From positions 31,992,960 through 32,056,959 of the forward strand of contig NC_041813.1 in assembly GCF_900964775.1 (NCBI RefSeq): a stretch of 64,000 nt of DNA, in the 5' to 3' direction. A program made the position numbers and the translations under genes. The DNA comes from Scleropages formosus. Taxonomy: Eukaryota. Shown here piece after piece: positions 11,340 through 59,343 of the stretch. The notes under the pieces are model-generated. The model was not told the DNA's origin. It ran no database searches and saw only the letters and a list, made by a program, of their open reading frames with translations. Position 1 is the stretch's first letter; every line of letters begins with the position of its first letter.

Positions 11340-11382
<43 letters not shown>

Positions 11383-11550
11383 ATCCCATACAGGGTTGCA
11401 GGGAGCCAAACCCTAACCTGGCAACACACGGCTGGACGGGGACACACCCAGGACGGGACGCCAGTCCGGCGCAAGGCACCCCAAGAGGGGCTCGAACCCC
11501 AAACCCAAACCCACCAGAGAGCAGGACCCGGTTCAACCCACTGCGCCCTC
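11383..11550 (-). mobile_element. tRNA-derived SINE (family A), preceded by a (CA)n tract
   Basis: Reverse complement of GGGCGCAGTGGGTTGAACCGGGTCCTGCTCTC...GGTTCGAGCCCC...GGCGTCCCGTCCTGGGTGTGTCCCCGTCC...CCCTGTATGGGATAC. Confidence 0.7.
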
Positions 11551-14376: not shown

Positions 14377-14700
<324 letters not shown>

Positions 14701-14743: not shown

Positions 14744-15012
14744 CACAAATCCAAGCAGGTGGACTATGGTTCTGGGCCTGCAGACCCAGCAGGGAACCAA
14801 CCCAAACTCTGTGTCCGTATCAGTCAGCAAAATCACCGTGAACCCAAATTACAATGGAAACACCAACAACAACGACCTCGCTCTAGTCCAGCTGTCCTCC
14901 ACTATCAACTTCAGTGACTACATCCAGCCCATCTGCCTGGCAGCCACTGGCAGCACCTTCTACAACGGCACTGAGACCTGGGTCAGCGGCTGGGGAAACA
15001 TCCAGTCAGGAG
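14744..15012 (+). CDS. Serine protease copy 1, exon 4 (Asp102 exon: ...NNNDLALVQLSSTINFSDYIQPICLAATGSTFYNGTETWVSGWGNIQSGG)
   Basis: Contains the DLALVQL catalytic aspartate motif. The donor here is GC (ggag|gcgagt) where the other three copies have gtgagt. Confidence 0.7.
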
Positions 15013-16404
15013 GCGAGTGCGTTCGTCCTGAGGGCCAGCAGGTGGTGGCATGGTTAGGGAACAGGAGCTGTAAGTGACTGATTGGAGTTTCCTTTCCAAC
15101 GATGCCTGTTCTTTTGTACAGAAAATATGGTAAATAGTAAATATGCTCGACATGCAAACTTTCCGATGCTCAAACCTGGCTTTATAAGTGACACAGCGAC
15201 ACTGAAAAGCACTTAAGATGCTACTCGGGAAAGTGACACCATCGCCGGATGCAGCACAGGTCAAAGAGCCTGGGAAAATACAGGGAGGAGGCCATTACTT
15301 TGCTGCCTGATACTTTGTTCTTCTGCCAAAGTCATGTTCGAGAGACTTTGACCACCCCAGACAATACAGGCATCCCTAGATGTACTAAATGAATCCGATG
15401 CCGAAAACGGTGCGGATGCCGCAAGCCTGTTTCCCATTGTTCTAAGTCATTTTAAATAACAACGCTCATCGTTTTCCCACCAGCCGAGCACCACTGTGCT
15501 GTGCAAAAGGCTGCAGTGTACTTCTTGCCAGCTCTTCTCCTGACTTACCAGCATCTTAACATCTTTTTTAAGGAATTATCTCAACTTTGGCCTTTCTGTC
15601 ACTACTTATGCTCCTTGCTTCATGGTGTTCCGCGCACTCTGAGCTCTTCTGCCTCTTGACTTTCGGTACAAATGCGTTCTTATCTGCAATGCCCTAACAG
15701 ACCGTTTCCTTTAAGACTTGGATGCATGGTCTATGCATGTAGGTTGGTGCTGGATGACTCCGTTGCGTACTGAAGAAGCACCGCACTGAGTTTCCTTCTG
15801 GCCCGTAAGGAAATGACTTTTGGATACAGTGAGCTTTCACCCCCCGTGACATTTCCTATCTCCTTCAGATCTCCTTATGAGACCTCAACACCCCATCTTG
15901 GAAATCTGGTTCGTTGAGCTACTGCTTGCTGACTAGCCTTGTTGGCACAAACCTCAGTTTTATGTCTGTTGAAGTGTCTCAGCCTCGACATCTCCAAACC
16001 TCGCCTCCGAACCCCTCGCTCGTACTTTCTGTGGTACCAATGTTTCCGTCTCGTTACTCCAATGACATATAGAGTGTTCACGAAAAAACAAACACGTACT
16101 CTCCAGCCAGAGAGCTTTACCCAGAGTTTTAGACAGTAGCATATGGCTCTATATGGCTACGCTTATACCACAATTTAGAAAAAGACACGTTTGTATAAAA
16201 TAATACCAGTGTATGAGTACCGCATGAGTTAAACACAACGTAAAGAACAAACCTTTCGGAATTGCTACAGTGGTACGGTCAGACGAGCCTGCTGGTGCGT
16301 GATCAACCATTTGTGTTAGCTGAGTGTTGGGGCAGTCCGTCTCTCGCCGCACTGCCACTTTGACTAGTGACACTGTGTTAATCCTCATTGTCCTCTTTCC
16401 ACAG

Positions 16405-16550
16405 TGTCCCTCCCTTCACCCGGGACTCTACAGGAAATGCAGGTTCCTGTGGTGGGAAACGGGAAGTGTAACTGTCTCTATGGACCGGGGTCCATCACGG
16501 ACAACATGCTGTGTGCTGGTCTGCTGGCGGGGGGCAAGGACTCCTGTCAG
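16405..16550 (+). CDS. Serine protease copy 1, exon 5 ([49 protein letters not shown])
   Basis: Acceptor tttccacag, donor TGTCAG|gtaccg. Confidence 0.8.
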
Positions 16551-16670
16551 GTACCGCAGCTACCACAGCCTCCTGAGTCAACGTCTGTCTCAGAGAGCTC
16601 TCCACATATCCACAGCGAGTCCAGTGTGACCGTTCCCACTCACACCAGAAATGCGTTTCCACCTGTGCAG

Positions 16671-16982
16671 GGGGACTCAGGAGGTCCACTGGTGGTCAAA
16701 CGGGGTTCCGTCTGGGTCCAGGCCGGGATCGTGAGCTTTGGTAACGGATGTGCTGAACCCAGTTACCCAGGAGTCTACACCAGGGTGTCCCGGTATCAGT
16801 CCTGGATCAGCTCAGTCATCACCTCCAACCTACCAGGATTTGTCACATACTTCTCCAGTGGGACAAACAGTGATGTCACCTGCTACAAGTCCAGTCACTT
16901 AAATTCTGGCCGGACCCTCTTCTTTCCTTCTGTCCTCCTCTCTCTCCTTCCTTCACTGCTGCTCCTTGGAAGTCAGTTTTAA
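16671..16982 (+). CDS. Serine protease copy 1, exon 6 ([50 protein letters not shown]...). It has a hydrophobic C-terminal tail and a TAA stop at 16980-16982.
   Basis: Contains the GDSGGP catalytic serine motif. The tail [21 protein letters not shown] looks like a GPI-anchor or transmembrane signal. The preceding intron is exactly 120 nt. Confidence 0.8.
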
Positions 16983-19499: not shown

Positions 19500-20200
19500 T
19501 AACTACGTAACTACTCCTCTCTCTGGATTTCATCTAGTACCTCAGAACCATAGTAGTTCAGAACCTCAGTATCACTACCTCTGAACCCAAGTACCTCAGT
19601 AACAGTACCTATTACTCCAGTATCAATACCTCAGTGTCAGTACCATTACCACAGTAGCTCAGTATCAGTATCTTATTGCCTCATTGCCTGTGTCAGTACC
19701 TCAAGATTTATACCTCAGTACCTCAGAATCAGTACCTCAGTAACAGTACCTCATTACCCCAGTATCAATACCTCAGTATCATTACTTCAGTACCTCAGAA
19801 TCAGTACCTCAGTACCCCAACATCAGTACTTTGTTACCTCAGTATTAATACCTCAGTACCTCAGTGTCAGTACTTAATTACTCAGTATCAGTACCTCAGT
19901 ATTAATGCCTCAGTATCAATACCTCATTACCTCAGCATCAATACCCCAGTACCTAGTATCAAAACATCAGTACCTCAGTACCCCAATATCAGTACCTTGT
20001 TACCTCAGTATTAATACCTCAATACCTTAGTATCCCAGTATCAGTACTTTGTTACCTCAGTATCAGCACCTCAGTATTAATACCTCAGTACCTCAGTATC
20101 AGTATTTAATTACTTCAGAATCAGTACATCAGTATTAATACCTCAGTACCACAGTACCTAAGAATCTCAAGATCTCAGTACCACAGTACCTAAGAATGTC
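19500..20200. repeat. Minisatellite array of about 12-15 bp units (CAGTACCTCAGTAT, CAGTATCAGTACCT) upstream of protease copy 2
   Basis: About 700 bp of tandem units. ORF track entry 19676..20014 (QYLS repeats) is a translation of this array. Confidence 0.85.
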
Positions 20201-20428
20201 AGAATGAGGAATTTCTCGTGTGACACACACGTTGACATCATGCGTTCACACGAAAGGCGGCAACTGATCTGCAGCATAAAAAGCGCAGGCGAGTAGAGAG
20301 TAGAGCAAAGCGAACATCCGTCGTGCGAAGAGCACACGGCTCGTCTCCGCCCGGTAACACCGGCACACGTGTCACCCTAAACCTTTTACAAAGAAGCAGC
20401 GAGAAATAATCAGACAACGAAGAGGACG

Positions 20429-20483
20429 ATGACTCTGTGGACGGCTCTCTTCACTGTGGTGGCAGTAATTGCCATGGCAACAG
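20429..20483 (+). CDS. Serine protease copy 2, exon 1 (signal peptide MTLWTALFTVVAVIAMATG)
   Basis: ATG, hydrophobic core, donor CAG|gtagga. Identical to the sequence at 32255-32309. Confidence 0.6.
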
Positions 20484-21252
20484 GTAGGATTTATTCCACA
20501 TAGCATATGGCAGACACGATGATGGAGATAAAGAAATAAAGATTGCGGGGCAAGAGCCAGGACTGACGAGCCAGGCCAGTCTGTGTTCATACACACTCTG
20601 TAATTATTGGAACAATGAAAGTCAGCACGAAACTGTGACTAAATGACCAAAGTTGAAGAGAGAAAAGTTTGTCACCGGATGTTCTTTCCTTCTGTGACGT
20701 ACGACTCGTGTCAAACGGCGTCATTTATTAAATGATCAGAAATTAACGTGACGTGGGATATGTGGGCTTGAACGCGCAAAAACGTCCTCCAGGAGACCGA
20801 AGGGACCAAGTGCGAGAGGGAAAACGACGACACGGCGAGTACAGAGTAAGGGCACGTTCGTACAGTACCCATAAAATAAGAATGTTTCACCCTGGGCTGT
20901 TTCTTACACCATTCAAAGTGAGGAAAAGTTTGCAGTCTAACAACCTGAGGAATGTGTGACTTGAGGGAAAAATGAGTGTTTGGGCAATAATAGATCCCTA
21001 CAGCACAGGCTCTGCAGTTTTCAAGGACTGAAATGGTGCTGCAGAAAGTGCCGCGTGTCGTCGTAACACACATTTTGGGAAAAGTTGACAAACGTGCCAA
21101 ACACATTCCATGTTTCCCGTCCTCAGAGTCGACTCGCCTCCCCCTTATACACTTTCATAACTTTACTGTCCTGCCGGAGACCGAACTTCGTTTCCGGAAC
21201 GTTTCCTACTCAAGATCTCACTGACTTGTTCTTCTCTTCTTCTGCCTTCCAG

Positions 21253-21273
21253 AATCACACGCCCAGAAGCCAA
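21253..21273 (+). CDS. Serine protease copy 2, exon 2 (21-nt propeptide micro-exon)
   Basis: Acceptor cttccag|AATCACACGCCCAGAAGCCAA and donor |gtaagtg. Phase 1 in and phase 1 out, consistent with exons 1 and 3. Confidence 0.55.
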
Positions 21274-21618
21274 GTAAGTGCTCAATGCCGCTGTTACTCT
21301 TGTGTCGCGTGTTTGTCACACAGCAGTGCGGCCACAGGTTCGTGTTCAGTGTCAGCGCCAGAGCGGTCAGTCCAACAGCAGCTGGCCATCATCACTGAAA
21401 TAGAAGGAAACACTCCAGTTCGGGTTAAGGGCTCAAAACTGGACAGAAAATATAATCAGAATGTAAGTAGAGAAGTAAGAGTTTGATCCGGTGTCAAGGT
21501 CGAGATCTTCCCAGATCCCGGATCTTCATGCCTGCTGCTCGGAGCGGCGCAGTTCATGTCGCTGGGCCCTCTTGGGCTATGAGCTCCGCATGGGTGTGAA
21601 GCAGTTATGCAGCACTAG

Positions 21619-21879
<261 letters not shown>

Positions 21880-22004
21880 TAATTACAGGATGTGACAATG
21901 AAGAGGTGGAGCAGTGTTACGTGTGTCATGTACCATGTTTTGCGGTATGATGTTTCACCCCTGATATCGTCTTAAACTGCACTCTCTCACATTCTCTCCT
22001 CCAG

Positions 22005-22273
22005 TGCGAATCCAAGCAGGTGGACTATGGTTCTGGGCCTGCAGACCCAGCAGGGTACCAACCCGAACGCAGTGTCTGTATCAGTCAGCAAAATCACCGT
22101 GAACCCAAATTACAACGGAAACACCCATGACAACGACCTCGCTCTGGTCCAGCTGTCCTCTACTGTCAACTTCAACAACTACATCCAGCCCGTCTGCCTG
22201 GCAGCCGCTGGCAGCACCTTCTACAACGGCACCAAGACCTGGGTCACCGGCTGGGGATACATCCAGTCAGGAG
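22005..22273 (+). CDS. Serine protease copy 2, exon 4 (...NGNTHDNDLALVQLSSTVNFNNYIQPVCLAAAGSTFYNGTKTWVTGWGYIQSGG)
   Basis: Asp102 motif. Donor GGAG|gtgagtg. Confidence 0.8.
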
Positions 22274-22534
22274 GTGAGTGTGTTCGTCCTGAGGACCAGC
22301 AGGTGGAGGCGTAAATAGGGAACAGAAGCTACAAGTGAATTTTTTGCAGATACTGAGACGCTGCTGCCCACGATGCAGTGCTCTCTGTCCTTCTGGCACC
22401 TCAAACTGCATATCGGAACAAATTTGTCATTTACGAAATCAGAGCTAAATCACGACTGCAGGCTGCTGTTTTGCAGTTAGTCCACCTGATTACAGCCTTG
22501 GGAGCTGCAACCAGTTGCTGTCCTCTTCCCTCAG

Positions 22535-22680
22535 TGTTCCTCCCTCCACCGGGGATTCTGCAGGAAGTCGAGGTGCCTGTCATTGGAAACGGGAAGTGTA
22601 ACTGTCTCTATGGACCGGGGTCCATCACCAAGAACATGCTGTGTGCTGGGCTGCTGGCGGGGGGCAAGGACTCCTGTCAG
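22535..22680 (+). CDS. Serine protease copy 2, exon 5 ([49 protein letters not shown])
   Basis: Acceptor cttccctcag, donor CAG|gtaccg. Confidence 0.8.
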
Positions 22681-22800
22681 GTACCGCAGCTACCACAGCC
22701 TCCTGAGTCAACGTCTGTCTCAGAGAGCTCTCCACATATCCACAGCGAGTCCAGTGTGACCGTTCCCACTCACGCCAGAAATGTGTTTCCACCTGTGCAG

Positions 22801-23031
22801 GGGGACTCAGGAGGTCCACTGGTGGTCAAACAGGGTTCCGTCTGGGTCCAGGCCGGGATCGTGAGCTTTGGTAACGGATGTGCTGAACCCAATTACCCAG
22901 GAGTCTACACCAGGGTGTCCCCGTATCAGTCCTGGATTAGCTCAGTCATCACCTCCAACCTACCAGGATTCGTCACGTACTCCTCCAGTGGGACAAACCG
23001 TGACGTCACCTGCTCCGCTTTTGGGAAATGA
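22801..23031 (+). CDS. Serine protease copy 2, exon 6 ([76 protein letters not shown]). There is no hydrophobic tail.
   Basis: Catalytic serine motif present. TGA stop at 23029-23031, sitting upstream of the tail-encoding region that is still visible but out of frame. Confidence 0.8.
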
Positions 23032-27901: not shown

Positions 27902-28198
<297 letters not shown>

Positions 28199-28241: not shown

Positions 28242-28510
28242 CGCGGATCCAAGCGGTTGGACTATGGTTCTGGGCCTGCAGACCCAGCAGGGAACCAACC
28301 CAAACTCTGTGTCCGTATCAGTCAGCAGCATCACCGTGAACCCAAATTACAATGGAAACACCAACGACAACGATCTCGCTCTGGTCCAGCTCTCCTCCAC
28401 TGTCAGCTTCAGTGACTACATCCAGCCCATCTGCCTGGCAGCCTCTGGCAGCACCTTCTACAACGGCACCGAGACCTGGGTCACCGGCTGGGGAAACATC
28501 CAGTCAGGAG
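28242..28510 (+). CDS. Serine protease copy 3, exon 4 (...NGNTNDNDLALVQLSSTVSFSDYIQPICLAASGSTFYNGTETWVTGWGNIQSGG)
   Basis: Asp102 motif. Donor GGAG|gtgagtg. Confidence 0.8.
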
Positions 28511-28999
28511 GTGAGTGTGTTCGTCCTGAGGGCCAGCAGATGAAGATGTGGTTAAGGAACGGGAGCTGTAAGTGTTTGATTCACACTGTTCACATGGCAA
28601 TGAGCGAGTTCACCTAAATGTCCTTGACTTATGAGATTTTGCCTCACAAACTTTTAGAGATACAAACTTGGCTTTATGTCCAGTATCGAATTGATGTTCA
28701 TAAGTTCAAGCCCCGTCACCACATAAGGCTTCCGTAAGAATCCCAGCATTGCCATTGTTCACTAGCATTGTTCCTATCCACACAGCTGAAATGATCGTTT
28801 CAGTGTTATCGTAGTGGTTCTTCTGGGTTTTGTTGTGCGTACAAACCCAGCCCTGTGACTGACATTGCGGACAGCACTAGATGGACGGTCGGTACCCTAT
28901 TACTATCAGAAATTGAAATATGAATTTACTCTGGTAAGGTTGCTGACTTCAGATCTACAACTAGTGAGTCTGTGCTAATTCTAAGTCCTTTACCCTCAG

Positions 29000-29145
29000 T
29001 GTCCCTCCCTTCACCCGGGACTCTACAGGAAGTGCAGGTTCCTGTGGTGGGAAACGGGAAGTGTAACTGTCTCTATGGACCGGGGTCCATCACGGACAAC
29101 ATGCTGTGTGCTGGTCTGCTGGCGGGGGGCAAGGACTCCTGTCAG
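29000..29145 (+). CDS. Serine protease copy 3, exon 5 ([49 protein letters not shown])
   Basis: Acceptor taccctcag, donor CAG|gtaccg. Confidence 0.8.
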
Positions 29146-29265
29146 GTACCGCAGCTACCACAGCCTCCTGAGTCAACGTCTGTCTCAGAGAGCACTCCAC
29201 ATGTCCACAGCGAGTCAAGTGTGACCGTTCCCACTCACGCCAGAAATGTGTTTCCACCTGTGCAG

Positions 29266-29577
29266 GGGGACTCAGGAGGTCCACTGGTGGTCAAACAGGG
29301 TTCCGTCTGGGTCCAGGCCGGGATCGTGAGCTTTGGTAACGGATGTGCTGAACCCAATTACCCAGGAGTCTACACCAGGGTGTCCCAGTATCAGTCCTGG
29401 ATCAGCTCAGTCATCACCTCCAACCTGCCAGGATTTGTCACGTACTTCTCCAGTGGGACAAACAGTGACGTCACCTGCACCGCAACAGCCGCAGTCATCT
29501 CTTCCATGAATGTCCTCTTTTCCTCTATCCCCCTCTTTCTGTTTCCTTCACTGCTGCTCATTGACACCCTCTTCTAA
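29266..29577 (+). CDS. Serine protease copy 3, exon 6 (GDSGGP...). It has the hydrophobic tail ...[32 protein letters not shown] and a stop at 29575-29577.
   Basis: Catalytic serine motif plus an intact hydrophobic C-terminus. Confidence 0.8.
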
Positions 29578-31199
29578 GTCTCATGCTGAAAATTTTCTTA
29601 TTTTCATCCAGTTGTAATCCAAACAGTTGATTAAATTCATTTTCATTTGGCTCCCTTACCAACCAGGTTCTTAAGATCAAGGGTAAAAAATACAGAGAGA
29701 TTAGCAACTGTGATTACCATAAATAATAAAGGAAATGTAATAAGTTAAAATAAGTGAGGGGTGTAACCAGAAGACAAAGCAGAAGGATGGTATAGGAACT
29801 ATGTAAACCAGAATGAAAAGCTGACATAAATTTAAAAACAATATACAGTTAACATAAAAGATATGCATATTTGCATGTAACTGTAGAAAACATCAATTTA
29901 TGAAGGCAACAGTTTTTAAAGTAGTAGCTCTTCTCCTCTAATTTCCAGGTTGAAAATAAGTGGGTCTCCTTCTTACCTCTTAGATTATTACTCCTCGATA
30001 TATAGGGAATAACTGATAAAATGCAACTGCATTTTCATAGTTATATTAGTGATTGATTCATGATTAGTCACCGCATAACCAATACAGGGTTTCGGACATA
30101 CACACATATGTATTCTTTAGATCCTTCAGCTTTACGGCTTCCATTAAACGTGAGATCTCAAATGCAGAGTTCAGACAGAAATACCACGAAGGAAATTGCG
30201 TGTTTATACCAGCTTACTGCTGTACAAAGAGCACGTTGGACTTTGTAGCGCTTAGAGTGAAATGAAGGCACCAAAGAAGGTGAGCTTCTACATTCCTGTG
30301 TCACCTTCTCATGTACTCATGAGTAGGTTCCTCACATGGACAAAGTGACATGTCTCATAACTCCTGCAGGATTGATCTAGAGTCCCGTCAGAGCTTAGAA
30401 CAAAAGGCAAACTTGGTTTGTTCACAAGGTTTCATTTCTTTTTCTTTGAATCACTGCATGTGTTGTGATAATAATCACAATAATAATCACTGTAACCTCT
30501 CAGGGCGTTCGGGTTTCATGTCAACATCATCTAACCTCAACATTTCGTTCTCTTTTCATAAAGGGTAAATAAAAGGAAATAAATAAATAAATCTCTGGCT
30601 GTGTGCACTCATTTCAAAGTACTGCTGCCAGCTGTTACCGATTTACAGCAACAGACTCTCTAACTCATGGCAACGCAAAGTTGGCAGAAACGTAAGGAAT
30701 CTCTTGCATTGTCCTGTCTGAAATGCATCAGCGATAACAGAAGCAGCCTGTTTTTCTTGAGATTCTTGACTAGCTGGGTCATGACTGCATCCTAAATAAT
30801 GCAGGAAGGAGCAATGAAAGATGGGCCCACTTGATAATGAGACAAGGTTTGAAACCATGACCTTCTCCATCATCACCTTCAAATCATGCTTATGGGCAGG
30901 TAAAGCTAGCCACCCCAGCCACTAGGAGGGATATCTACCAAGAGTCTTCATACACAGAATGACCAGCTTAAGCACCCTATTGTTACATTATAAAAGGTAA
31001 CAACTCTCTCAAAACACACAACACTGAATGACGATCACACCTTGCCCAGGTGCAGCGATGGCAATTGTGCGCAGCAGCGATCGACTTCTACACGCTCGTG
31101 TTTAGAATGAGACTGGATACAGTTCGTTAATATGAACATAAACAGAAATAACGGAACTGCAGTGATGATGTTGTTTTGTGGTACGTGCAGCATGAGGAA

Positions 31200-31990
31200 T
31201 TATTACTAACTACGTAACTACTCCTCTCTCTGGATTTCATCTAGTACCGCAGAACCTCAGTACCAATACCTCAGAACCCAAGTACCTCAATATCAGTACC
31301 TCAGCACCTCAGTATTAATACCTCATTATCCCAGTTTCAGTACCTCAGTACCTCATAATCTCAGTATCAATACCCCAATATCAGTACCTTTACCTCAGTA
31401 CCAGTATCTTAGTATTAATACCTCAGTATCAGTACCTCAGTAACCCAGTGTTAGTACTTCGTTACCACAGTATCAGTACATATTAATACCTCAGTATCTC
31501 AGTAACAGTACCTCATTACCCCAGTATCAATACCTCAGTACCATTACTTCAGTACCTCAGAATCAGTACCTCAGTACCCCAATATCAGTACTTTGTTACC
31601 TCAGCGTCAATACCCCAGTACCTCAGTATCAAAACATCAGTACCTCAGTACCCCAGTGTTAGTACTTCGTTACCACAGTATCAGTACATATTAATACCTC
31701 AGTACCTCAGTATCGGAGGGGGGTGCAGTGGGTTGGACCGGGTCCTGCTCTCCTGTGGGTCTGGGGTTCGAGTCCCGCTTGGGGTGCCTTGCGACGGACT
31801 GGCGTCCCATCCTGGGTGTGTCCCCTCTCCTTCCAGCCTTATGCCCTGAGTTGCTGGGTGAGGCTCCGGTTCCCCGTGACCCCGTATGGGACAAGCGGTT
31901 CTGAAAATGTGTGTATCTCAGTATCAGTACTTTGTTACTTCAGTACCACAATACCTAAGGATCTCAGTACCACAGTACCTAAGAATGTCA
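31200..31990. repeat. Paralogous minisatellite array upstream of protease copy 4, interrupted by the SINE at 31716-31912
   Basis: Same unit as the array at 19500-20200. ORF track entry 31886..32122 partly covers it. Confidence 0.85.
31716..31912 (+). mobile_element. tRNA-derived SINE (family A), full length, inserted inside the minisatellite array
   Basis: Sequence GGGGGGTGCAGTGGGTTGGACCGGGTCCTGCTCTCC...GGTTCGAGTCCCGCTTGGGGTGCCTTGCGACGGACTGGCGTCC...CCGTATGGGACAAGCGGTTCTGAAAATGTGTGT. It is absent from the paralogous array at 19500-20200. Confidence 0.8.
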
Positions 31991-32254
31991 GAATCTTGGT
32001 ACCTCCCTCTCGATGAGCAGCATATGAGCATGAGGAATTTCTCGTGTGACACACACGTTGACATCATGCGTTCACACGAAAGGCGGCAACTGATCTGCAG
32101 CATAAAAAGCGCAGGCGAGTAGAGAGTAGAGCAAAGCGAACATCCGTCGTGCGAAGAGCACACGGCTCGTCTCCGCCCGGTAACACCGGCACACGTGTCA
32201 CCCTAAACCTTTTACAAAGAAGCAGCGAGAAATAATCAGACAACGAAGAGGACG

Positions 32255-32309
32255 ATGACTCTGTGGACGGCTCTCTTCACTGTGGTGGCAGTAATTGCCA
32301 TGGCAACAG
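32255..32309 (+). CDS. Serine protease copy 4, exon 1 (signal peptide MTLWTALFTVVAVIAMATG)
   Basis: Identical to copy 2 exon 1, offset by 11,826 nt. Confidence 0.6.
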
Positions 32310-33078
32310 GTAGGATTTATTCCACATAGCATATGGCAGACACGATGATGGAGATAAAGAAATAAAGATTGCGGGGCAAGAGCCAGGACTGACGAGCCAG
32401 GCCAGTCTGTGTTCATACACACTCTGTAATTATTGGAACAATGAAAGTCAGCACGAAACTGTGACTAAATGACCAAAGTTGAAGAGAGAAAAGTTTGTCA
32501 CCGGATGTTCTTTCCTTCTGTGTCGTACGACTCGTGTCAAACGGCGTCATTTATTAAATGATCAGAAATTAACGTGACGTGGGATATGTGGGCTTGAACG
32601 CGCAAAAACGTCCTCCAGGAGACCGAAGGGACCAAGTGCGAGAGGGAAAACGACGACACGGCGAGTACAGAGTAAGGGCACGTTCGTACAGTACCCATAA
32701 AATAAGAATGTTTCACCCTGGGCTGTTTCTTACACCATTCAAAGTGAGGAAAAGTTTGCAGTCTAACAACCTGAGGAATGTGTGACTTGAGGGAAAAATG
32801 AGTGTTTGGGCAATAATAGATCCCTACAGCACAGGCTCTGCAGTTTTCAAGGACTGAAATGGTGCTGCAGAAAGTGCCGCGTGTCGTCGTAACACACATT
32901 TTGGGAAAAGTTGACAAACGTGCCAAACACATTCCATGTTTCCCGTCCTCAGAGTCGACTCGCCTCCCCCTTATACACTTTCATAACTTTACTGTCCTGC
33001 CGGAGACCGAACTTCGTTTCCGGAACGTTTCCTACTCAAGATCTCACTGACTTGTTCTTCTCTTCTTCTGCCTTCCAG

Positions 33079-33099
33079 AATCACACGCCCAGAAGCCAA
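33079..33099 (+). CDS. Serine protease copy 4, exon 2 (21-nt micro-exon)
   Basis: Identical to copy 2 exon 2. Confidence 0.55.
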
Positions 33100-33444
33100 G
33101 TAAGTGCTCAATGCCGCTGTTACTCTTGTGTCGCGTGTTTGTCACACAGCAGTGCGGCCACAGGTTCGTGTTCAGTGTCAGTGCCAGAGTGGTCAGTCCA
33201 ACAGCAGCTGGCCATCATCACTGAAATAGAAGGAAACACTCCAGTTCGGGTTAAGGGCTCAAAACTGGACAGAAAATATAATCAGAATGTAAGTAGAGAA
33301 GTAAGAGTTTGATCCGGTGTCAAGGTCGAGATCTTCCCAGATCCCGGATCTTCATGCCTGCTGCTCGGAGCGGCGCAGTTCATGTCGCTGGGCCCTCTTG
33401 GGCTATGAGCTCCGAATGGGTGTGAAGCAGTTATGCAGCACTAG

Positions 33445-33705
<261 letters not shown>

Positions 33706-33830
33706 TAATTACAGGATGTGACAATGAAGAGGTGGAGCAGTGTTACGTGTGTCATGTACCATGTTTTGCGGTATGATGTTTCACCCCTGATATCGTCTTA
33801 AACTGCACTCTCTCACATTCTCTCCTGCAG

Positions 33831-34099
33831 TGCGAATCCAAGCGGTTGGACTATGGTTCTGGGCCTGCAGACCCAGCAGGGTACCAACCCACATGCAGTG
33901 TACAGAGCAGTGAGAAGAATCATTGTTCATCCAAGGTACAATGGAAACACCAACAACAACGACCTCGCTCTAGTCCAGCTGTCCTCCACTATCAATTTCA
34001 GTGACTACATCCAGCCCATCTGCCTGGCAGCCGCTGGCAGCACCTTATACAACGGCACCGAGACCTGGGTCACCGGCTGGGGATACATCCAGTCAGGAG
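33831..34099 (+). CDS. Serine protease copy 4, exon 4 (...[72 protein letters not shown])
   Basis: Asp102 motif. Contains a mosaic patch relative to copy 2 (see findings). Confidence 0.8.
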
Positions 34100-34648
34100 G
34101 TGAGTGTGTTCGTCCTGAGGACCAGCAGGTGGAGGCGTAAATAGGGAACAGAAGCTACAAGTGAATTTTTTGCAGGTTAACATCCCTGGTCAGCTGGGAA
34201 ACTGAGTGAGATGAGCTGAATAACCTGAACTTAGACACTTAAAGAGGTACAAACCTGGCAACAAATTCCCAGAATTAAGCTTAACTGTAAGGGGACCCGC
34301 GTCATTAGAGAAGGCCTTCTCCAGCATTCCCGCTGGTGCTGCTGCCACTCTAGCATTCCGTCCCTCAAGGTGCTTTTCTCCAGTTCTTTTCCTTTCCGTT
34401 CTTCACAAACACACATACAAAAAACAGTGGATGAAGAGAAGTCCATACTGCCGCTGAAGGGCGGTACTGAGACGCTGCTGCCCACGATGCAGTGCTCTCT
34501 GTCCTCCTGGCACCTCAAACTGCATATCAGAACAAATTTGTCATTTACGAAATCAGAACTAAATCACGACTGCAGGCTGCTGTTTTGCAGTTAGTCCACC
34601 TGATTACAGCCTTGGGAGCTGCAACCAGTTGCTGTCCTCTTCCCTCAG

Positions 34649-34794
34649 TGTCCCTCCCTCCACCGGGGATTCTGCAGGAAGTCGAGGTGCCTGTCATTGG
34701 AAACGGGAAGTGTAACTGTCTCTATGGACCGGGGTCCATCACCAAGAACATGCTGTGTGCTGGGCTGCTGGCGGGGGGCAAGGACTCCTGTCAG
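34649..34794 (+). CDS. Serine protease copy 4, exon 5 ([49 protein letters not shown])
   Basis: The upstream intron is about 290 nt longer than in copy 2 because of an insertion at roughly 34170-34480. Confidence 0.8.
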
Positions 34795-34914
34795 GTACCG
34801 CAGCTCCCACAGCCTCCTGAGTCAACGTCTGTCTCAGAGAGCTCTCCACATATCCACAGCGAGTCCAGTGTGACCGTTCCCACTCACGCCAGAAATGTGT
34901 TTCCACCTGTGCAG

Positions 34915-35172
34915 GGGGACTCAGGAGGTCCACTGGTGGTCAAACAGGGTTCCGTCTGGGTCCAGGCCGGGATCGTGAGCTTTGGTAACGGATGTGCTGA
35001 ACCCAAATACCCAGGAGTCTACACCAGGGTGTCCCAGTATCAGTCCTGGATCAGCTCAGTAATCACCTCCAACCTGCCAGGATTTGTCACGTACTTCTCC
35101 AGTGGGAGAAACCGTGACGTCACCTGCTCTGCAACAATCGCAGTCACCAGTAACAGTATATTGCTTACATAA
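34915..35172 (+). CDS. Serine protease copy 4, exon 6 (GDSGGP...[23 protein letters not shown]). There is no long hydrophobic tail.
   Basis: Stop at 35170-35172. Compared with copy 3, about 300 nt covering the tail and the first downstream block is missing. Confidence 0.8.
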
Positions 35173-35383
35173 CATATATGTGTATTTGCATATAACTACA
35201 GAAAACATATCAATTTATGAAGGCAACAGTTTTTAAAGTAGTAGCTCTTCTCCTCTAATTTCCAGGTTGAAAATAAGTGGGTCTCCTTCTTACCTCTTAG
35301 ATTATTACTCCTCGATATATAGGGAATAACTGATAAAATGCAACTGCATTTTCATAGTTATATTAGTGATTGATTCATGATTA

Positions 35384-35598
35384 GGGGGGTGCGGTGGCGC
35401 AGTGGGTTGGACCACGGTCCTGCTGTCCGGTGGGTCTGGGGTTCGAGTCCCGCTTAGGGTGCCTTGTGACGGACTGGCGTCCCGTCCTGGGTGTGTCCCC
35501 TTCCCCCTCCGGCCTTACGCCCTGTGTTGCCGGGTAGGCTCCGGTTCCCCGTGACCCCGTATGGGACAAGCGGTTCTGAAAATGTGTGTGTGTGTGTG
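35384..35598 (+). mobile_element. tRNA-derived SINE (family A), full length, with a 12-bp target-site duplication ATTCATGATTAG
   Basis: The TSD occurs at 35372-35383 and at 35599-35610. The empty site GATTGATTCATGATTAGTCACCGCATAACC is intact in the paralogous sequence at 30048-30077. Confidence 0.85.
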
Positions 35599-38336
35599 AT
35601 TCATGATTAGTCACCGCATAACCAATACAGGGTTTCGGACATACACACATATGTATTCTTTAGATCCTTCAGCTTTACGGCTTCCATTAAACGTGAGATC
35701 TCAAATGCAGAGTTCAGACAGAAATACCACGAAGGAAATTGCATGTTTATACCAGCTTACTGCTGTACAAAGAGCACGTTGGACTTTGTAGCGCTTAGAG
35801 TGAAATGAAGGCACCAAAGAAGGTGAGCTTCTACATTCCTGTGTCACCTTCTCATGTACTCATGAGTAGGTTCCTCACATGGACAAAGTGACATGTCTCA
35901 TAACTCCTGCAGGATTAATCTAGAGTCCCGTCAGAGCTTAGAACAAAAGGCAAACTTGGTTTGTTCACAAGGTTTCATTTCTTTTTCTTTGAATCACTGC
36001 ATGTGTTGTGATAATAATCACAATAATAATCACTGTAACCTCTCAGGGCGTTCGGGTTTCATGTCAACATTATCTAACCTCAACATTTCGTTCTCTTTTC
36101 ATAAAGGGTAAATAAAAGGAAATAAATAAATAAATCTCTGGCTGTGTGCACTCATTTCAAAGTACTGCTGCCAACTGTTACCGATTTACAGCAATAGACT
36201 CTCTAACTCATGGCAACGCAAAGTTGGCAGAAATGTAAGGAATCTCTTGCATTGTCCTGTCTGAAATGCATCAGCGATAACAGAAGCAGCCTGTTTTTCT
36301 TCAGATTCTTGACTAGCTGGGTCATGACTGCATCCTAAATAATGCAGGAAGGAACAATGAAAGATGGGCCCACTTGATAATGAGACAAGGTTTGAAAGCA
36401 CAACCACAGAAAGTTCCCAAATTTATATCAACAATGATCTTAAACCAAAAACAAGCAGGAACACCAATTTACTCCGCTGCACCTGGGTAAACATAGCTAT
36501 GTACACGTCGAGGAGGACTTCTGCAGGAAAGCACAACTATTGATAGTTATTATTATTTCAGCAGATTTCTGTCCTATTCTAGGCATATCATAAGCGGTAA
36601 CTGCAGTAATATTTCGGGTTCATTTCGTTTTTGCTCAAGTTGAACATCAGTCGTTTATTCATTATCCTCACAGCCTTCACAGAAAAGTTGAAGAGCCTTG
36701 GTGCCCCAAAAGAGGGTTGAGACACCAGAAACTAGATGGGTGATACAGCCATTGCCACAGCATACATATTCCAGAAGACAGCTACAGAAGAGACAGACAG
36801 AAACATGAAAACAGGTGGATGAAAAATGACAGGTGGAGAAGCAGCTCACCGACAATGTTTGCTAAAGTCTTTGCTAAACAATAAATGTAAATGTAAGGCT
36901 CAAGATGAAATGGGGCACCAAGACATTGACCACATAGTCCCTAGAATGTGGCTGTTTTTTCCATCCATTCATGCAAGCAGTCACTGTGCGTTATGAGCCC
37001 GGACAGAGTCAAGAACTTCTTCCCAGATGTTGACCCTCTTGTTGCTGGGCGACTGTTTAACTTGCACATCTCACACGCTCCTTTTGCTACGCTGTAGCCT
37101 ACTTTCAAGGGTTTTAAACTCATGGCTCATAGGTTTTATAACATGTTGCAGGAAGGCCGAAGGATTTGCAGAACGACGACTCACTGGATTGTGCTCCATC
37201 AACAGCATGACCACAAGACTTGCAAAGAGAAGGAGCAAATCCCTCCTTCTCCATCATCACCTTTAAATCACCCTTACGGGCAGGTAAAGCTCTTCCCCCC
37301 AACCTCTAGGACAGATATCCAGCAAGGGTCTTCATGCACAGAATGACCAGCTTAAGCACCCTACCCTTCGACAATAGTAGGTGAACAAAGCGTCCTGTGG
37401 TCACCTCTAAACATGCTCTGTTTGGTGCTTGAGGGCTCATAGCGCCACCCCATTGAATACCCACCTGAACTCCAGCAACAGGAGCCTAAGAACTCTGTGA
37501 CACAAGATGCTGTATGCCGCAGGTGCGTGCTCTTGTCCGCTTTATTTCTCTCTTGAAAGAGACAGGGGATCGGGTCATGTGGAAGGGAGGAAAGGGGGTA
37601 ACCGGGAAGTGGGACAGCGAGAGGGGGTCTTGAGGTGCGGTTGGGGTTGGGCGAGGACATCTTTGTCTCCTGCTCTGAGTGTGTGCATCTGGCTTCCGTC
37701 TCCCTCTCCATCTCCCTCGCTCACTGTCAGGCACAGGGTTTGAAATAGAGGTTTTTATTAGCTGCAGGTATGGCGAATCCTTCCCCCTCCCCCCGCCTCC
37801 GTCCACCCAGGCATGCCACAAAGTCTTTCAACCAGAAATCGGGGGGATGTCCAACTCGTGAAATGTCCTGCCGGATGCTCGCGCTGTTCTTATGGACCGA
37901 TGGAATGGACCAAAGCAACAGCATTGCTGCGTGACTCAAACAGCTAAAAATGTCTACGCATGGAGCAAACTGTGCTAATAAATTCAGTGATGGCGAAAGT
38001 GACTGTTCAGCCCTCTCTCTTCCTGCTTTTGTGTTGTGCATCGTTATTTTGTGTACTGTACTAGAAAATGCTTAATCATTTTAAAAGTAATGTGGTCAAA
38101 CCAGTAGGAGACCATACTGCAGAATTTGCACAGATAGGGTGAAGCTGTCATTTCATTTATGTGTCATTTTCTCCCCTGCTGTATAAAAGGAGGGGGCCCT
38201 TAACCATCCAACATCATTGAGCTGATGGTAGAACACCACACTTTCCATCGAAGAAGTTTCACATAACCCTTACACATGTCCATCTTCTCTAGACAAGTTT
38301 TATACTACAACCACACACACACACACACACACACAC

Positions 38337-38531
38337 ATTTTCAGAACCGCTTGTCCCATACGGGGTCACGGGAAACCGGAGCCTACCCGGCAACACAGGG
38401 CATAAGGCCGGAGGGGGAGGGGACACACCCAGGATGGGATGCCAGTCCGTCACAAGGCACCCCAAGCGGGACTCGAACCCCAGACCCACCGGAGAGCAGG
38501 ACTGTGGTCCAACCCACTGCACCACTGCATA
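38337..38531 (-). mobile_element. tRNA-derived SINE (family A), with a (CA)n tract at its tail
   Basis: Reverse complement of the same consensus (…GTGGTCCAACCCACTGCACCACTGC at the head). Confidence 0.75.
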
Positions 38532-39426: not shown

Positions 39427-39645
39427 ACGGGGGGGTGCAGTGGCACAGTGGGTTGGACCCAGGTCCTGATTTCCAGTGGTTCTGGGGTTCAAGTCCTGCT
39501 TGGGGTGTCTTGCGACGGACTGGTGTCCTGTCCTGGGTGTGTCCCCTCTGGCCTTACGCCCTGTGTTAGGGGGTAGGCTCTGGTTCCCTGCGACCCTGTA
39601 TGGGACAAGCGGTTCTGGAAATGTGTGCGTGTGTGTGTTTATAGC
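39427..39645 (+). mobile_element. tRNA-derived SINE (family A), older and more diverged
   Basis: Sequence GGGGGGTGCAGTGGCACAGTGGGTTGGACCCAGGTCCTGATTTCC...GGTTCAAGTCCTGC...CTGTATGGGACAAGCGGTTCTGGAAATGTGTG. Confidence 0.7.
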
Positions 39646-48000: not shown

Positions 48001-48597
48001 CTGAAAGGGAGGAGAGGCACCACAAAACCCCAGTAAAGCACAACTTTACTGTGAATGATCTGGCTTAACCTTCGCCAAAGAAAAGCCATCTCCAGACACA
48101 GGTACTGCCTGCTCAGCCTCACCACACTGCATTCTGTTTTTTTTTCTTCCCCCCCCCGTGTTTTCATTAGTCCTATGAACAGCACTGGCTCCCAGCACCT
48201 TGCAGGCAGAAAGCACACACCGACACACTGCAAACAGCGCACATACACAGAGCAGGCGCTCGAGATCAGAGGGTTACACCCTTTCGCAGGTGAGAGCACA
48301 TACATAGCACCCTCTGATGAGTTCCAGAAGAGTCTATAGACATTCCAGAGTTCCAGTGAGCTGTCCTGCACATCAAACATGCACTTTTCAAGCAGCACAA
48401 AATTAAACACTCTGGTCATCTACACATTCACAGAGAGAGTTTCCAGAGTAGATCACTGCAGTAAAATACTACTTCTTGCTAAGCAAATACTTCGTTTCTT
48501 CCTTGGAAAGTGGTCACATCATTCTGCTGCTGTATCTTACTCTGGACTTCGCTTCCATGGCCACAAGTTCACACATTTGCACCCTAACACGTCTAAC

Positions 48598-48767
48598 CTT
48601 CAGAGCAGCAAAGCAATGCTGGATGAGCCCCTGCACCCGGTAGTACTGCGCCTCTGCCAGAACCTCCTCCAGCTCCCTCTGGGACTCGGGCAGGGGCACG
48701 TATCCATCGCGTAGGAAGTTCAGGATTAGACTGAAATGGCGGCCGCTGCGGTCCAGCACCACCCAAC
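48598..48767 (-). CDS. kctd13: KCTD13 exon 2 ((G)WVVLDRSGRHFSLILNFLRDGYVPLPESQRELEEVLAEAQYYRVQGLIQHCFAALK)
   Basis: Matches human [57 protein letters not shown]. Confidence 0.8.
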
Positions 48768-48861
48768 CTGAAAAAAAAAAAAGAGAGCAATACAGCACGT
48801 GCGGACCATGGAGGGACGAGCAAACACGGCAGCGCCCGCCCGCTCGGCCACCGTCTCTCAC

Positions 48862-49102
48862 CCTCGGGGTCAATGGTGACCTCAGCGGCGCCGGTGCACA
48901 TGCGGCTCAGCAGGCTGTCCTCCTTGCTCAGCGTCTGCACGGTGGTGTAGTGCAGCGATCCTCCCACATTGAGCTTCACGTATTTGCTGCCTGCCAGGCC
49001 GCCACCACCGCCTCCCTTATCCTCACTCAGCCCATCGGGGGGCCCTGCCGCAGCAAGAAGCAGCTCCGACGCCACGCTTCCAGCGGAGGCTTCGGCCGAC
49101 AT
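48862..49102 (-). CDS. kctd13: KCTD13 (BACURD1) exon 1 (MSAEASAGS...KYVKLNVGGSLHYTTVQTLSKEDSLLSRMCTGAAEVTIDPE(G))
   Basis: Encodes the BTB domain. The start matches human KCTD13 MSAEAS. ORF track entry 48593..49165 has this M as its 22nd residue. Confidence 0.85.
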
Positions 49103-49767
49103 TGGGGGTGGGAAGTGAGCTGCGGAGGAAACACGGAAAGGTGAAGGGCACAGGGTTCGCCACATCGCTCCACGCAGGGGTGCGAAAACGACAACTCTTG
49201 CACCATCGCATCACGCTGCGCTCGCGCTCACGCTCACACCCCCCCCCCCCCAGCTTTGGAGGGGTCCACTTTCGGTTATCGACCGCTCCAGTTGAGCTGT
49301 CAGTGCTGCTTTTTGTTGCCTTTTTTTTGCTTATTTCTTAATTCACGGTTTGTTAATGTTGTGCTTGTCTGGGTCTGTGTTCACCTGTTGCTGTGTCAGC
49401 ATCTTGTGTGTGTGTGTTGCTTGCTGTACCTGTCAAAAGATCAACAATGAATGTTTTCAGCCATCGATTGCCATCCGTCTCGAGCTGCAGCGCACTACGG
49501 ACAGCAGCAGAGACTCTCACTTGTCCCAAACCCATCCGGTTCGGCTACAATCTCCTTTTTCCCAGCGATTCCAGCCACCCACTGCACCGCTGGCACTTCC
49601 AGCACGACGTTCACCCCTCCCTCAGACACGGCGCCGCTCAACTTCCCAGAATGAGCTGCGCCGACTCACTCCTGACAAGCTGCTGTTTAGCAGACAAGCC
49701 CATTCCAAAGCATTAAAACGTCCTGTCGCCCTATCTGACAGGTAAACAGGGTAAACACTGAGTACTA

Positions 49768-51992: not shown

Positions 51993-59343
<7,351 letters not shown>

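Follow-up and report, generated by a model that had tools for sequence, protein, structure and literature searches.

A composite, gene-conversion-like tract within one exon of a tandem PRSS27/prostasin-like protease gene of the Asian arowana

The stretch analysed here, which we call the window, comprises 64,000 nucleotides of intron-containing vertebrate DNA from Scleropages formosus (Asian arowana) and carries four tandem PRSS27/prostasin-like S1 protease genes, c1–c4. A six-frame motif scan located exactly these four copies, all on the plus strand, and no further protease copy in the window. Exon models were built for the mature domain, with the first listed exon counted from the IVGG codon in every copy. 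On the plus strand these are 14473-14612, 14744-15012, 16405-16550 and 16671-16982 in c1; 21736-21875, 22005-22273, 22535-22680 and 22801-23031 in c2; 27971-28110, 28242-28510, 29000-29145 and 29266-29577 in c3; and 33562-33701, 33831-34099, 34649-34794 and 34915-35172 in c4. The full extent of the c4 exon with His57 is 33533-33701, its IVGG codon lying at 33562. This study concerns the c4 exon that encodes the Asp102 region (33831-34099, plus strand), called exon 4 in an earlier note on this DNA. Its splice sites were read directly, and its translation is that of the Ensembl/UniRef models P0004 and P0121. The counterpart exon of c2 (22005-22273) lacks the patch described below.

Catalytic His57, Asp102 and Ser195 and the IVGG activation N terminus are intact in all four copies (AAHC, NNDLAL and GDSGGP motifs), and D91 and the other catalytic-core columns are invariant in an alignment of 55 sequences. 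For both c4 and c2 the match to the Pfam Trypsin profile (PF00089) spans positions 1-220 of 220, with 247.7 bits (E 1.5e-73; 248-250 for the two copies) where the cut-off is 20.6. Among solved structures (PDB) the top matches are enteropeptidase light chain and prostasin (E about 1e-64), and the nearest named homologues are teleost proteins annotated as serine protease 27/33-like, zgc:100868, prostasin and tryptase-like, at 55–66% identity. By sequence, c1–c4 are S1 chymotrypsin-fold serine proteases of the prostasin/PRSS27-like type. The c4 reading frame is intact and predicts an enzyme.

A search with the c4 domain returned S. formosus Ensembl/UniRef models identical to coding segments of the window: P0004 and P0121 to c4, P0012 to c3 and P0014 to c1. 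The public gene models P0001, P0002, P0004 and P0008 are unreliable for this locus. P0001 and P0002 join neighbouring copies into two-domain proteins (c2+c3, c1+c2), and others among the four run through introns or omit part of the patch-bearing exon.

The copies differ at their C termini. The last exons of c1 (16671-16982) and c3 (29266-29577) encode a hydrophobic tail of the sort seen in prostasin-type proteases that are GPI-anchored or membrane-bound. That of c2 (22801-23031) ends at an early stop (…VTCSAFGK) and has no tail, and that of c4 (34915-35172) has none because about 340 bp of c3 (29497-29837) are missing there. In all four copies (16404-16982, 22378-23031, 28972-29577 and 34492-35172) the intron separating the final two coding exons, 120 bp long, keeps the frame and contains no stop codon, so that exon, intron and exon form one long open reading frame and an intron-retaining isoform would be possible. 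Downstream of the array lie a weak BTB_2 match (48593-49165, minus strand), which is below the curated cut-off, and a CUB-domain exon (54409-55104, minus strand; Pfam E 7.7e-10).

The closest pair in a self-comparison of the window is formed by the c2 unit (20088-23018) and the c4 unit (31913-35132). Base-by-base alignment of the two divides c4 into a c2-like left block, a non-c2 tract and a c2-like right block, all on the plus strand. The left block (32060-33843), which includes exon 33533-33701, has 5 substitutions in 1,784 bp (0.28%; 99.72% identity). The tract (33844-34060) has 34 in 217 bp (15.7%). The right block (34061-35030) takes in exon 34649-34794 and the first part of exon 34915-35172; it opens without a single substitution over 34061-34174 and, after an indel, shows 7 in 566 bp over 34465-35030 (1.24%; 98.8% identity). 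The indel is a 288-bp intron segment (34175-34462, plus strand) that is present in c4 and absent from c2. It has no match in the introns of c1, c3 or c5 (a paralog outside the window, described below) or elsewhere in the window, and we dropped the idea that it is a repeat or a homologue of the c1, c3 or c5 introns. It is either an insertion in c4 or a deletion in c2, and serves as a c4-specific anchor.

The differences between c2 and c4 are thus not scattered evenly across intron and exon. Thirty-four of the 48 substitutions fall inside the 217-bp tract, which lies wholly within exon 33831-34099; within 32060-35050 this amounts to 34 in 233 aligned bp (33827-34059) against 14 in the remaining 2,470 bp (Fisher p about 1e-26). 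Outside the tract, as far as 33835 and from 34084 on, all c2-diagnostic sites are c2-type in c4, and inside it c4 is non-c2. Sawyer-type (GENECONV-type) runs tests over 101 polymorphic sites gave p 4.5e-4 by permutation for a run of ten consecutive sites shared by c1 and c4 (33942-33995), p 2e-4 for the c4-private run and p 4e-4 for the run at which c2 and c4 differ. This confirms that the mosaic of the c4 exon is genuine and statistically robust as a pattern in the sequence. The earlier note had placed it at 33890-33990 inside an otherwise ~99%-identical duplicate of c2. The four peptides on which that description was based are in place (c4 33886-34032, c2 22060-22206, c3 28297-28443 and c1 14799-14945) and the mosaic does occupy that interval, but the true tract is wider. 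Likewise, the flanks are 99.7% and 98.8% identical to c2, but only to about 35030; from 35036 c4 resembles c3.

To resolve the parentage of the tract, every polymorphic site was compared across c1–c4 and c5. Along the exon, c4 reads successively as c2, c3-type, private, c1, c5-type and c2 again. At the left edge, positions 33844 and 33846 are c3-type and also agree with the Gly of the family consensus; together with 33917 these are the only sites that the tract has in common with the c3 exon (28242-28510). The c1-type segment (33942-34018, plus strand) is c1-type at 12 of 12 non-c2 sites, its candidate donor or partner being 14855-14931 (plus strand) in the c1 exon 14744-15012. Three of these sites (33955, 33972 and 33991) have an A that occurs only in c1 and c4. 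Polarity was set by alignment with an outgroup paralog (the P0077 gene), and since this paralog, c2 and c3 all have G, the A is a derived state shared by c1 and c4. A private synonymous change at 33996 is the sole DNA difference from c1 in the second half of the patch. The right end (34019-34083, plus strand) is identical to c5, and A34047 is found only in c4 and c5. Hence, the protein-level identity of the second half to c1, noticed earlier, extends to c1-specific derived states in the DNA. The division of the patch into two parts captures its c1-type and private halves, both of which exist, but misses that the tract as a whole is composite, with c3-type, private, c1-type and c5-type portions.

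The private portion is concentrated in a 45-bp core (33892-33936, plus strand) that contains 15 c4-unique sites, differs from c2 at 17 of its 45 positions and encodes (H) plus 14–15 residues. These 15 sites are nearly all of the c4-private sites in the 666-bp alignment (15 of 17; binomial p 3e-16). Over 19 codons, NG86 distances of the core from c1–c3 are 0.31–0.34 for dN and 0.70–1.25 for dS, with dN/dS about 0.25–0.5. Outside the patch, dS is 0.10–0.14 between lineages family-wide and 0.03 for c2 and c4. Because dS is very high, the core is old paralog sequence under purifying-type constraint rather than the product of a burst in place or of positive selection. Its nucleotide distance is 18/50 from c1–c3 and 16/50 from the outgroup paralog (locus L001), which itself stands 18–20/50 from c1–c3; the core thus appears to represent a third deep lineage, about equidistant from the other two. 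At the 18 core sites where c4 differs from c2, the outgroup paralog shares the c4 base at 10 and the c2 base at 6.

The core also keeps the reading frame and the family consensus. About 120 teleost homologues give NPNEVSRTV(S/A)RII(V/L)HPNYN for this segment, and c4 retains R-x-V-x-R-I-I-V-H-P-x-Y-N. Conservation in the 55-sequence alignment is 90% or higher at His80, Pro81 and Asn68 (c4 numbering); of the consensus residues, c4 has Arg, Ile and His-Pro in its core, whereas position 68 is His. The first half of the patch had been described as close to the consensus of the trypsin fold and unmatched by the other copies in the window, and both points hold, matches to these copies being no longer than 11-mers. 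In c1–c3 (14744-15012, 22005-22273 and 28242-28510) the at least 90% conserved His of the His-Pro turn (chymotrypsin His91) is replaced by Asn; together with a low-complexity SVSVSVS stretch in the same copies, this makes an unusual derived state for the family.

These data bear directly on a reading in which the core arose by a burst of point mutations in place, under positive selection on the protease surface and with no template. Such a burst would account for the concentration of ten amino-acid changes in a 15-residue stretch of strand and turn at the surface. It would, however, have had to place 17 substitutions, synonymous changes and multiply hit codons among them, in 45 bp beside flanks that differ by 0.3%, to raise dS far above that of the flanks at a dN/dS of only about 0.25–0.5, and to arrive again at the consensus of the family, with its near-invariant His-Pro. 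When both window strands were searched for a source of the core by short-word blastn and exact k-mers, only chance matches of at most 11 bases came back. A local template is thereby excluded, and with it templated mutation from a local quasi-repeat. We regard a mutation burst as very improbable, and the synonymous divergence effectively refutes it.

An AlphaFold2 model of the c4 domain (mean pLDDT 87) places the patch on the protease fold. Residues 70-79 form a beta-strand predicted with high confidence, residues 80-83 (HPRY) a turn, residues 84-92 (NGNTNNND) the loop to Asp91, equivalent to chymotrypsin Asp102, and residues 93-97 the next strand. From alignment with enteropeptidase and prostasin and from the known fold, we take the core to correspond to about residues 77-94 of chymotrypsin, from the last part of the 70-80 loop through strand 81-90 to the turn at His91-Pro92, and the c1-type half to correspond to the 99-loop, Asp102 and the following strand. 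The earlier description of the patch as a surface loop preceding Asp102 therefore suits the c1-type half, but not the private half, which in the model is beta-strand 70-79 and the His-Pro-x-Tyr turn. Relative to c2, the core introduces ten residue changes between N68 and N82. The near-invariant His of the His-Pro turn is restored, the near-invariant Asn68 becomes His, four Arg are gained and one Lys is replaced. The patch should leave the catalytic triad unaffected. The change may plausibly affect an exosite or a surface that binds inhibitors or glycosaminoglycans.

The search for donors covered the window and two arowana paralogs outside it (L001 and L002) at the DNA level, and protein libraries. 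By segment, the match is c1 for 33942-34018 and c5 for 34019-34083, and none was found for 33892-33936. The fifth paralog, c5, is KPP70955.1 (P0134) on scaffold L002 (JARO02003209.1) of a 2015 short-read assembly, and its flanks have no counterpart in the window. Its exon (L002:10679-11045) is c3-identical for about 140 bp, then c4-identical for 65 bp, then unique. This makes c5 either another conversion mosaic or a short-read assembly chimera beside a 1-N gap, L002 being a gapped short-read scaffold in which part of the mosaic could be chimeric. Both outside paralogs were rejected as donor of the core: the P0077/P0122 gene (L001) differs at 16/50 core positions, and c5 is c3-identical through the core.

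Protein searches were equally negative for the core. An exon-only search returned only the c2, c3 and c5 fragments of the 2015 assembly and unrelated fish fragments. When 1.84 billion representative proteins were scanned with the patch by HMMER, nothing other than the c4 models themselves came nearer to the 17-residue core than 11/17, and no core donor was present among the 270 family proteins retrieved. Exact look-ups of the exon-4 ORFs of c1–c4, the c4 exon 5-6 ORF, P0004 and P0122 yielded no record, and a metagenome scan with 27 nt of the core no match. The suggestion that the donor may lie outside the window is thus upheld in part: family members do exist there (c5 and the P0077/P0122 gene), and c5 shares A34047, but neither of these two carries the core.

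The history of c4 as a whole determines how the tract can be read. Identity of c2 and c4 is about 97–100% in unique sequence and persists to no more than 45 bp from the point (19329/31036) at which homology stops abruptly; that point resembles a duplication breakpoint. Because the identity extends to this end, the 5′ block of c4 would be a young copy and the deviations in it secondary. c4 also differs from c2 by a SINE insertion (31719-31914), the 288-bp indel and a diverged tandem repeat. The repeats 5′ of c2 (19693-20154, period 36) and 5′ of c4 (31281-31650, period 22) are related and diverged, about 70–80% being alignable, and the unique sequence adjoining them is 97–100% identical. Moreover, the left and right c2-like blocks are unequally diverged (0.28% and 1.24%; p 0.011). 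A young simple duplicate predicts none of these features and is weakened by them.

At its other end, c4 changes from c2-type to c3-type between 35007 and 35036, inside the last coding exon (region 35007-35146). This change makes c4 a composite with a c2-type 5′ and a c3-type 3′ part, not a plain duplicate of c2. The c3-like 3′ end and downstream flank (35036-36400, plus strand) are interrupted by a SINE-like insertion (35385-35596), and their identity to c3 is heterogeneous, with stretches at 80–85%, 94% and 99%; the downstream flank is an older duplicate of that of c3. Within it lies a sharply bounded block of about 950 bp (c3 29915-30860, c4 35230-36400) at about 99% identity, its neighbours (29837-29915 and 30875-30955) being only 80–85% identical. 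This block resembles a second tract of conversion or homogenisation in the array, here in non-coding DNA. A 99% block between stretches of 80–85% would mean that conversion of old duplicates happens at this locus.

Two other routes to the composite were set aside. A single c2 x c3 exchange by unequal crossing-over is expected to leave a hybrid only in the two-gene deletion product, not in a four-gene array. A later fusion within a duplicated two-gene unit fails because the 3′ identity of c3 and c4 is heterogeneous. The SINE-like element, about 200 bp long, occurs five times in the window (11342-11547, 31719-31914, 35385-35596, 38321-38529 and 39430-39640), and scaffold L002 ends in the same element. 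The copy at 31719-31914 stands immediately upstream of the c4 unit, and that at 35385-35596 has about 14 bp of c3 (30054-30067) on both sides, resembling a target-site duplication.

Several of these features would also be expected if c4 were an older paralog whose body was recently homogenised by c2 in at least two tracts, the patch or at least its core being original c4 sequence. Heavily mismatched heteroduplex would then have been rejected or repaired to the recipient, and conversion would have run in the opposite direction, without an external donor. The 3′ end and flank of c4, an older duplicate of those of c3 (80–94% identity) with a sharply bounded homogenised block, fit this history, as do the unequal divergence of the two c2-like blocks and the tandem repeat, SINE and 288-bp indel that bracket or interrupt them. 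So do the failure to find the core in the window, the L001 gene, c5 or the 270 family proteins, and the agreement of the outgroup paralog with c4 at 10/18 core sites against 6/18 for c2. Such a remnant does not explain the second half of the patch, however, which is 99% identical to c1 with c1-specific derived states and so is not old c4 sequence. A leftover 37% diverged from its neighbours further implies an original gene too diverged for easy conversion over 4 kb, and the high c2/c4 identity up to an abrupt end resembles a duplication breakpoint, not the end of a conversion tract. Whether the core is incoming or a remnant, the c1-type half would require a recent exchange between c1 and c4 at this spot. 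We consider a remnant possible but doubtful, and the same applies to the reversed conversion that would have preserved it.

A further alternative places the mosaic in the assembly rather than the genome: reads of an unassembled or collapsed paralog could have been misplaced into c4 during consensus building or short-read polishing, the array being a tandem repeat of near-identical units. The c4 exon is known solely from one assembly, on which the Ensembl/UniRef models are also based; neither its ORF nor P0004 had an exact match in other assemblies. An independent 2015 contig (L003) supports c2 and c3, with 100% identity in the c2 exon (22005-22273) and 99.8–100% in c3 and its flank, and ends at 30854, before c4; scaffold L002, for its part, illustrates how paralog mosaics arise or get mis-assembled. 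Against this, the window is gap-free, and over its 217 bp the patch shows 15% divergence, keeps the reading frame and sits in a c4-specific context, with the 288-bp insert 76 bp downstream. The same stray reads should have been drawn to c2, which L003 confirms throughout the exon, and A34047 of c4 is present in an independent assembly (L002). The break of L003 also coincides exactly with the end of the near-identity between the c3 and c4 flanks; since a short-read assembler would break at such a point, the c4 flank is implied to exist in that individual too. An assembly artefact is, in our judgement, improbable.

Of the readings considered, interparalog gene conversion into a c2-derived copy is the best, and we put its chances at about even. 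The 5′ 4 kb of c4 would be a recent copy of the c2 unit. In one of its exons, repair of a double-strand break with other family members as template (non-allelic gene conversion) would have overwritten about 217 bp, either in a single event with template switching or in two or three independent ones. For its 3′ two-thirds the tract would derive from c1 or a c1-like copy, its last 65 bp would reflect the paralog outside the window that they match, and for the 45-bp core the source would be a family member absent from this window and much more diverged. Which way the transfer went, how many events there were and which gene supplied the core are here what we infer from the pattern.

Incoming conversion is favoured because the tract stays within an exon, which a donor whose introns no longer align would predict; because c4 is c2-type on both sides of the tract and non-c2 within; because c5 exists outside the window and has A34047; and because conversion appears to have been active at the locus (the 99% block at 29915-30860). 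It also has precedent in exon-limited conversions between S1 paralogs, namely CELA3A/CELA3B, PRSS1/PRSS2 and PRSS1/PRSS3P2 (PMC5187948). It is weakened because the core donor was not found in the window, L001, L002, the 270 family proteins or the metagenome scan, and because the c4 sequence comes from one assembly. Conversion from a donor only about 65–80% identical is inefficient, which weakens it further. A more speculative variant, which we think quite unlikely, would make the core a cassette in a family-wide, selection-maintained exchange of exon-limited segments near the 99-loop, diversifying the exosite or inhibitor surface. By analogy with the microconversion-driven diversification of immune genes, and with as little probability, c4 (with its four added Arg and the conserved His) and c5 (a c3/c4 mosaic) would then be two snapshots of a process that repeatedly reshuffles this strand and turn among many prostasin-like paralogs.

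If gene conversion is the correct reading, the PRSS27/prostasin-like cluster of the arowana would evolve by exchange between paralogs as well as by duplication. Unmasked mosaic tracts of this kind would yield misleading gene trees, orthology calls and dN/dS scans for the family. One event would swap ten residues on a surface strand and turn, and c2 and c4 would make a natural, almost isogenic pair for probing that surface. The significance is nevertheless modest, the phenomenon being routine for tandem protease families and involving no new mechanism.

As proteins, c1–c4 resemble the secreted or GPI-anchored proteases prostasin (PRSS8), PRSS27/marapsin and zgc:100868 in their Trypsin domain, IVGG terminus and triad and, for c1 and c3, in the hydrophobic tail, a likeness drawn from sequence similarity. 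They differ from this type in that c2 and c4 lack the tail and c1–c3 have Asn for the near-invariant His. The tract itself recalls discontinuous, or mosaic, conversion tracts, which stem from patchy mismatch repair or from template switching in synthesis-dependent strand annealing or break-induced replication. As in these, the parentage of c4 alternates over tens of bp in a short region, here known from one sequence.

The closest parallels are human. Conversion of CELA3A to CELA3B in exon 7 spanned 7 nt or more and altered five nucleotides and three residues, and conversions between PRSS1 and PRSS2 and between PRSS1 and PRSS3P2 cause pancreatitis (PMC5187948, whose references on such conversion include Chen et al. 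2007, Nat Rev Genet 8:762). In common with these cases, the arowana tract is a short, exon-confined, multi-nucleotide tract between neighbouring S1 genes that changes several adjacent residues at once and leaves the remainder of the gene as it was. It differs from them in its greater length (217 bp) and its composite make-up of three or more parentages, and in standing in a reference assembly rather than on a rare heterozygous allele. Its 45-bp core, moreover, is far more diverged than anything in the human cases and has no source among the sequences searched. By analogy, the arowana tract would be the same kind of event as the human conversions, in another protease subfamily and another lineage.
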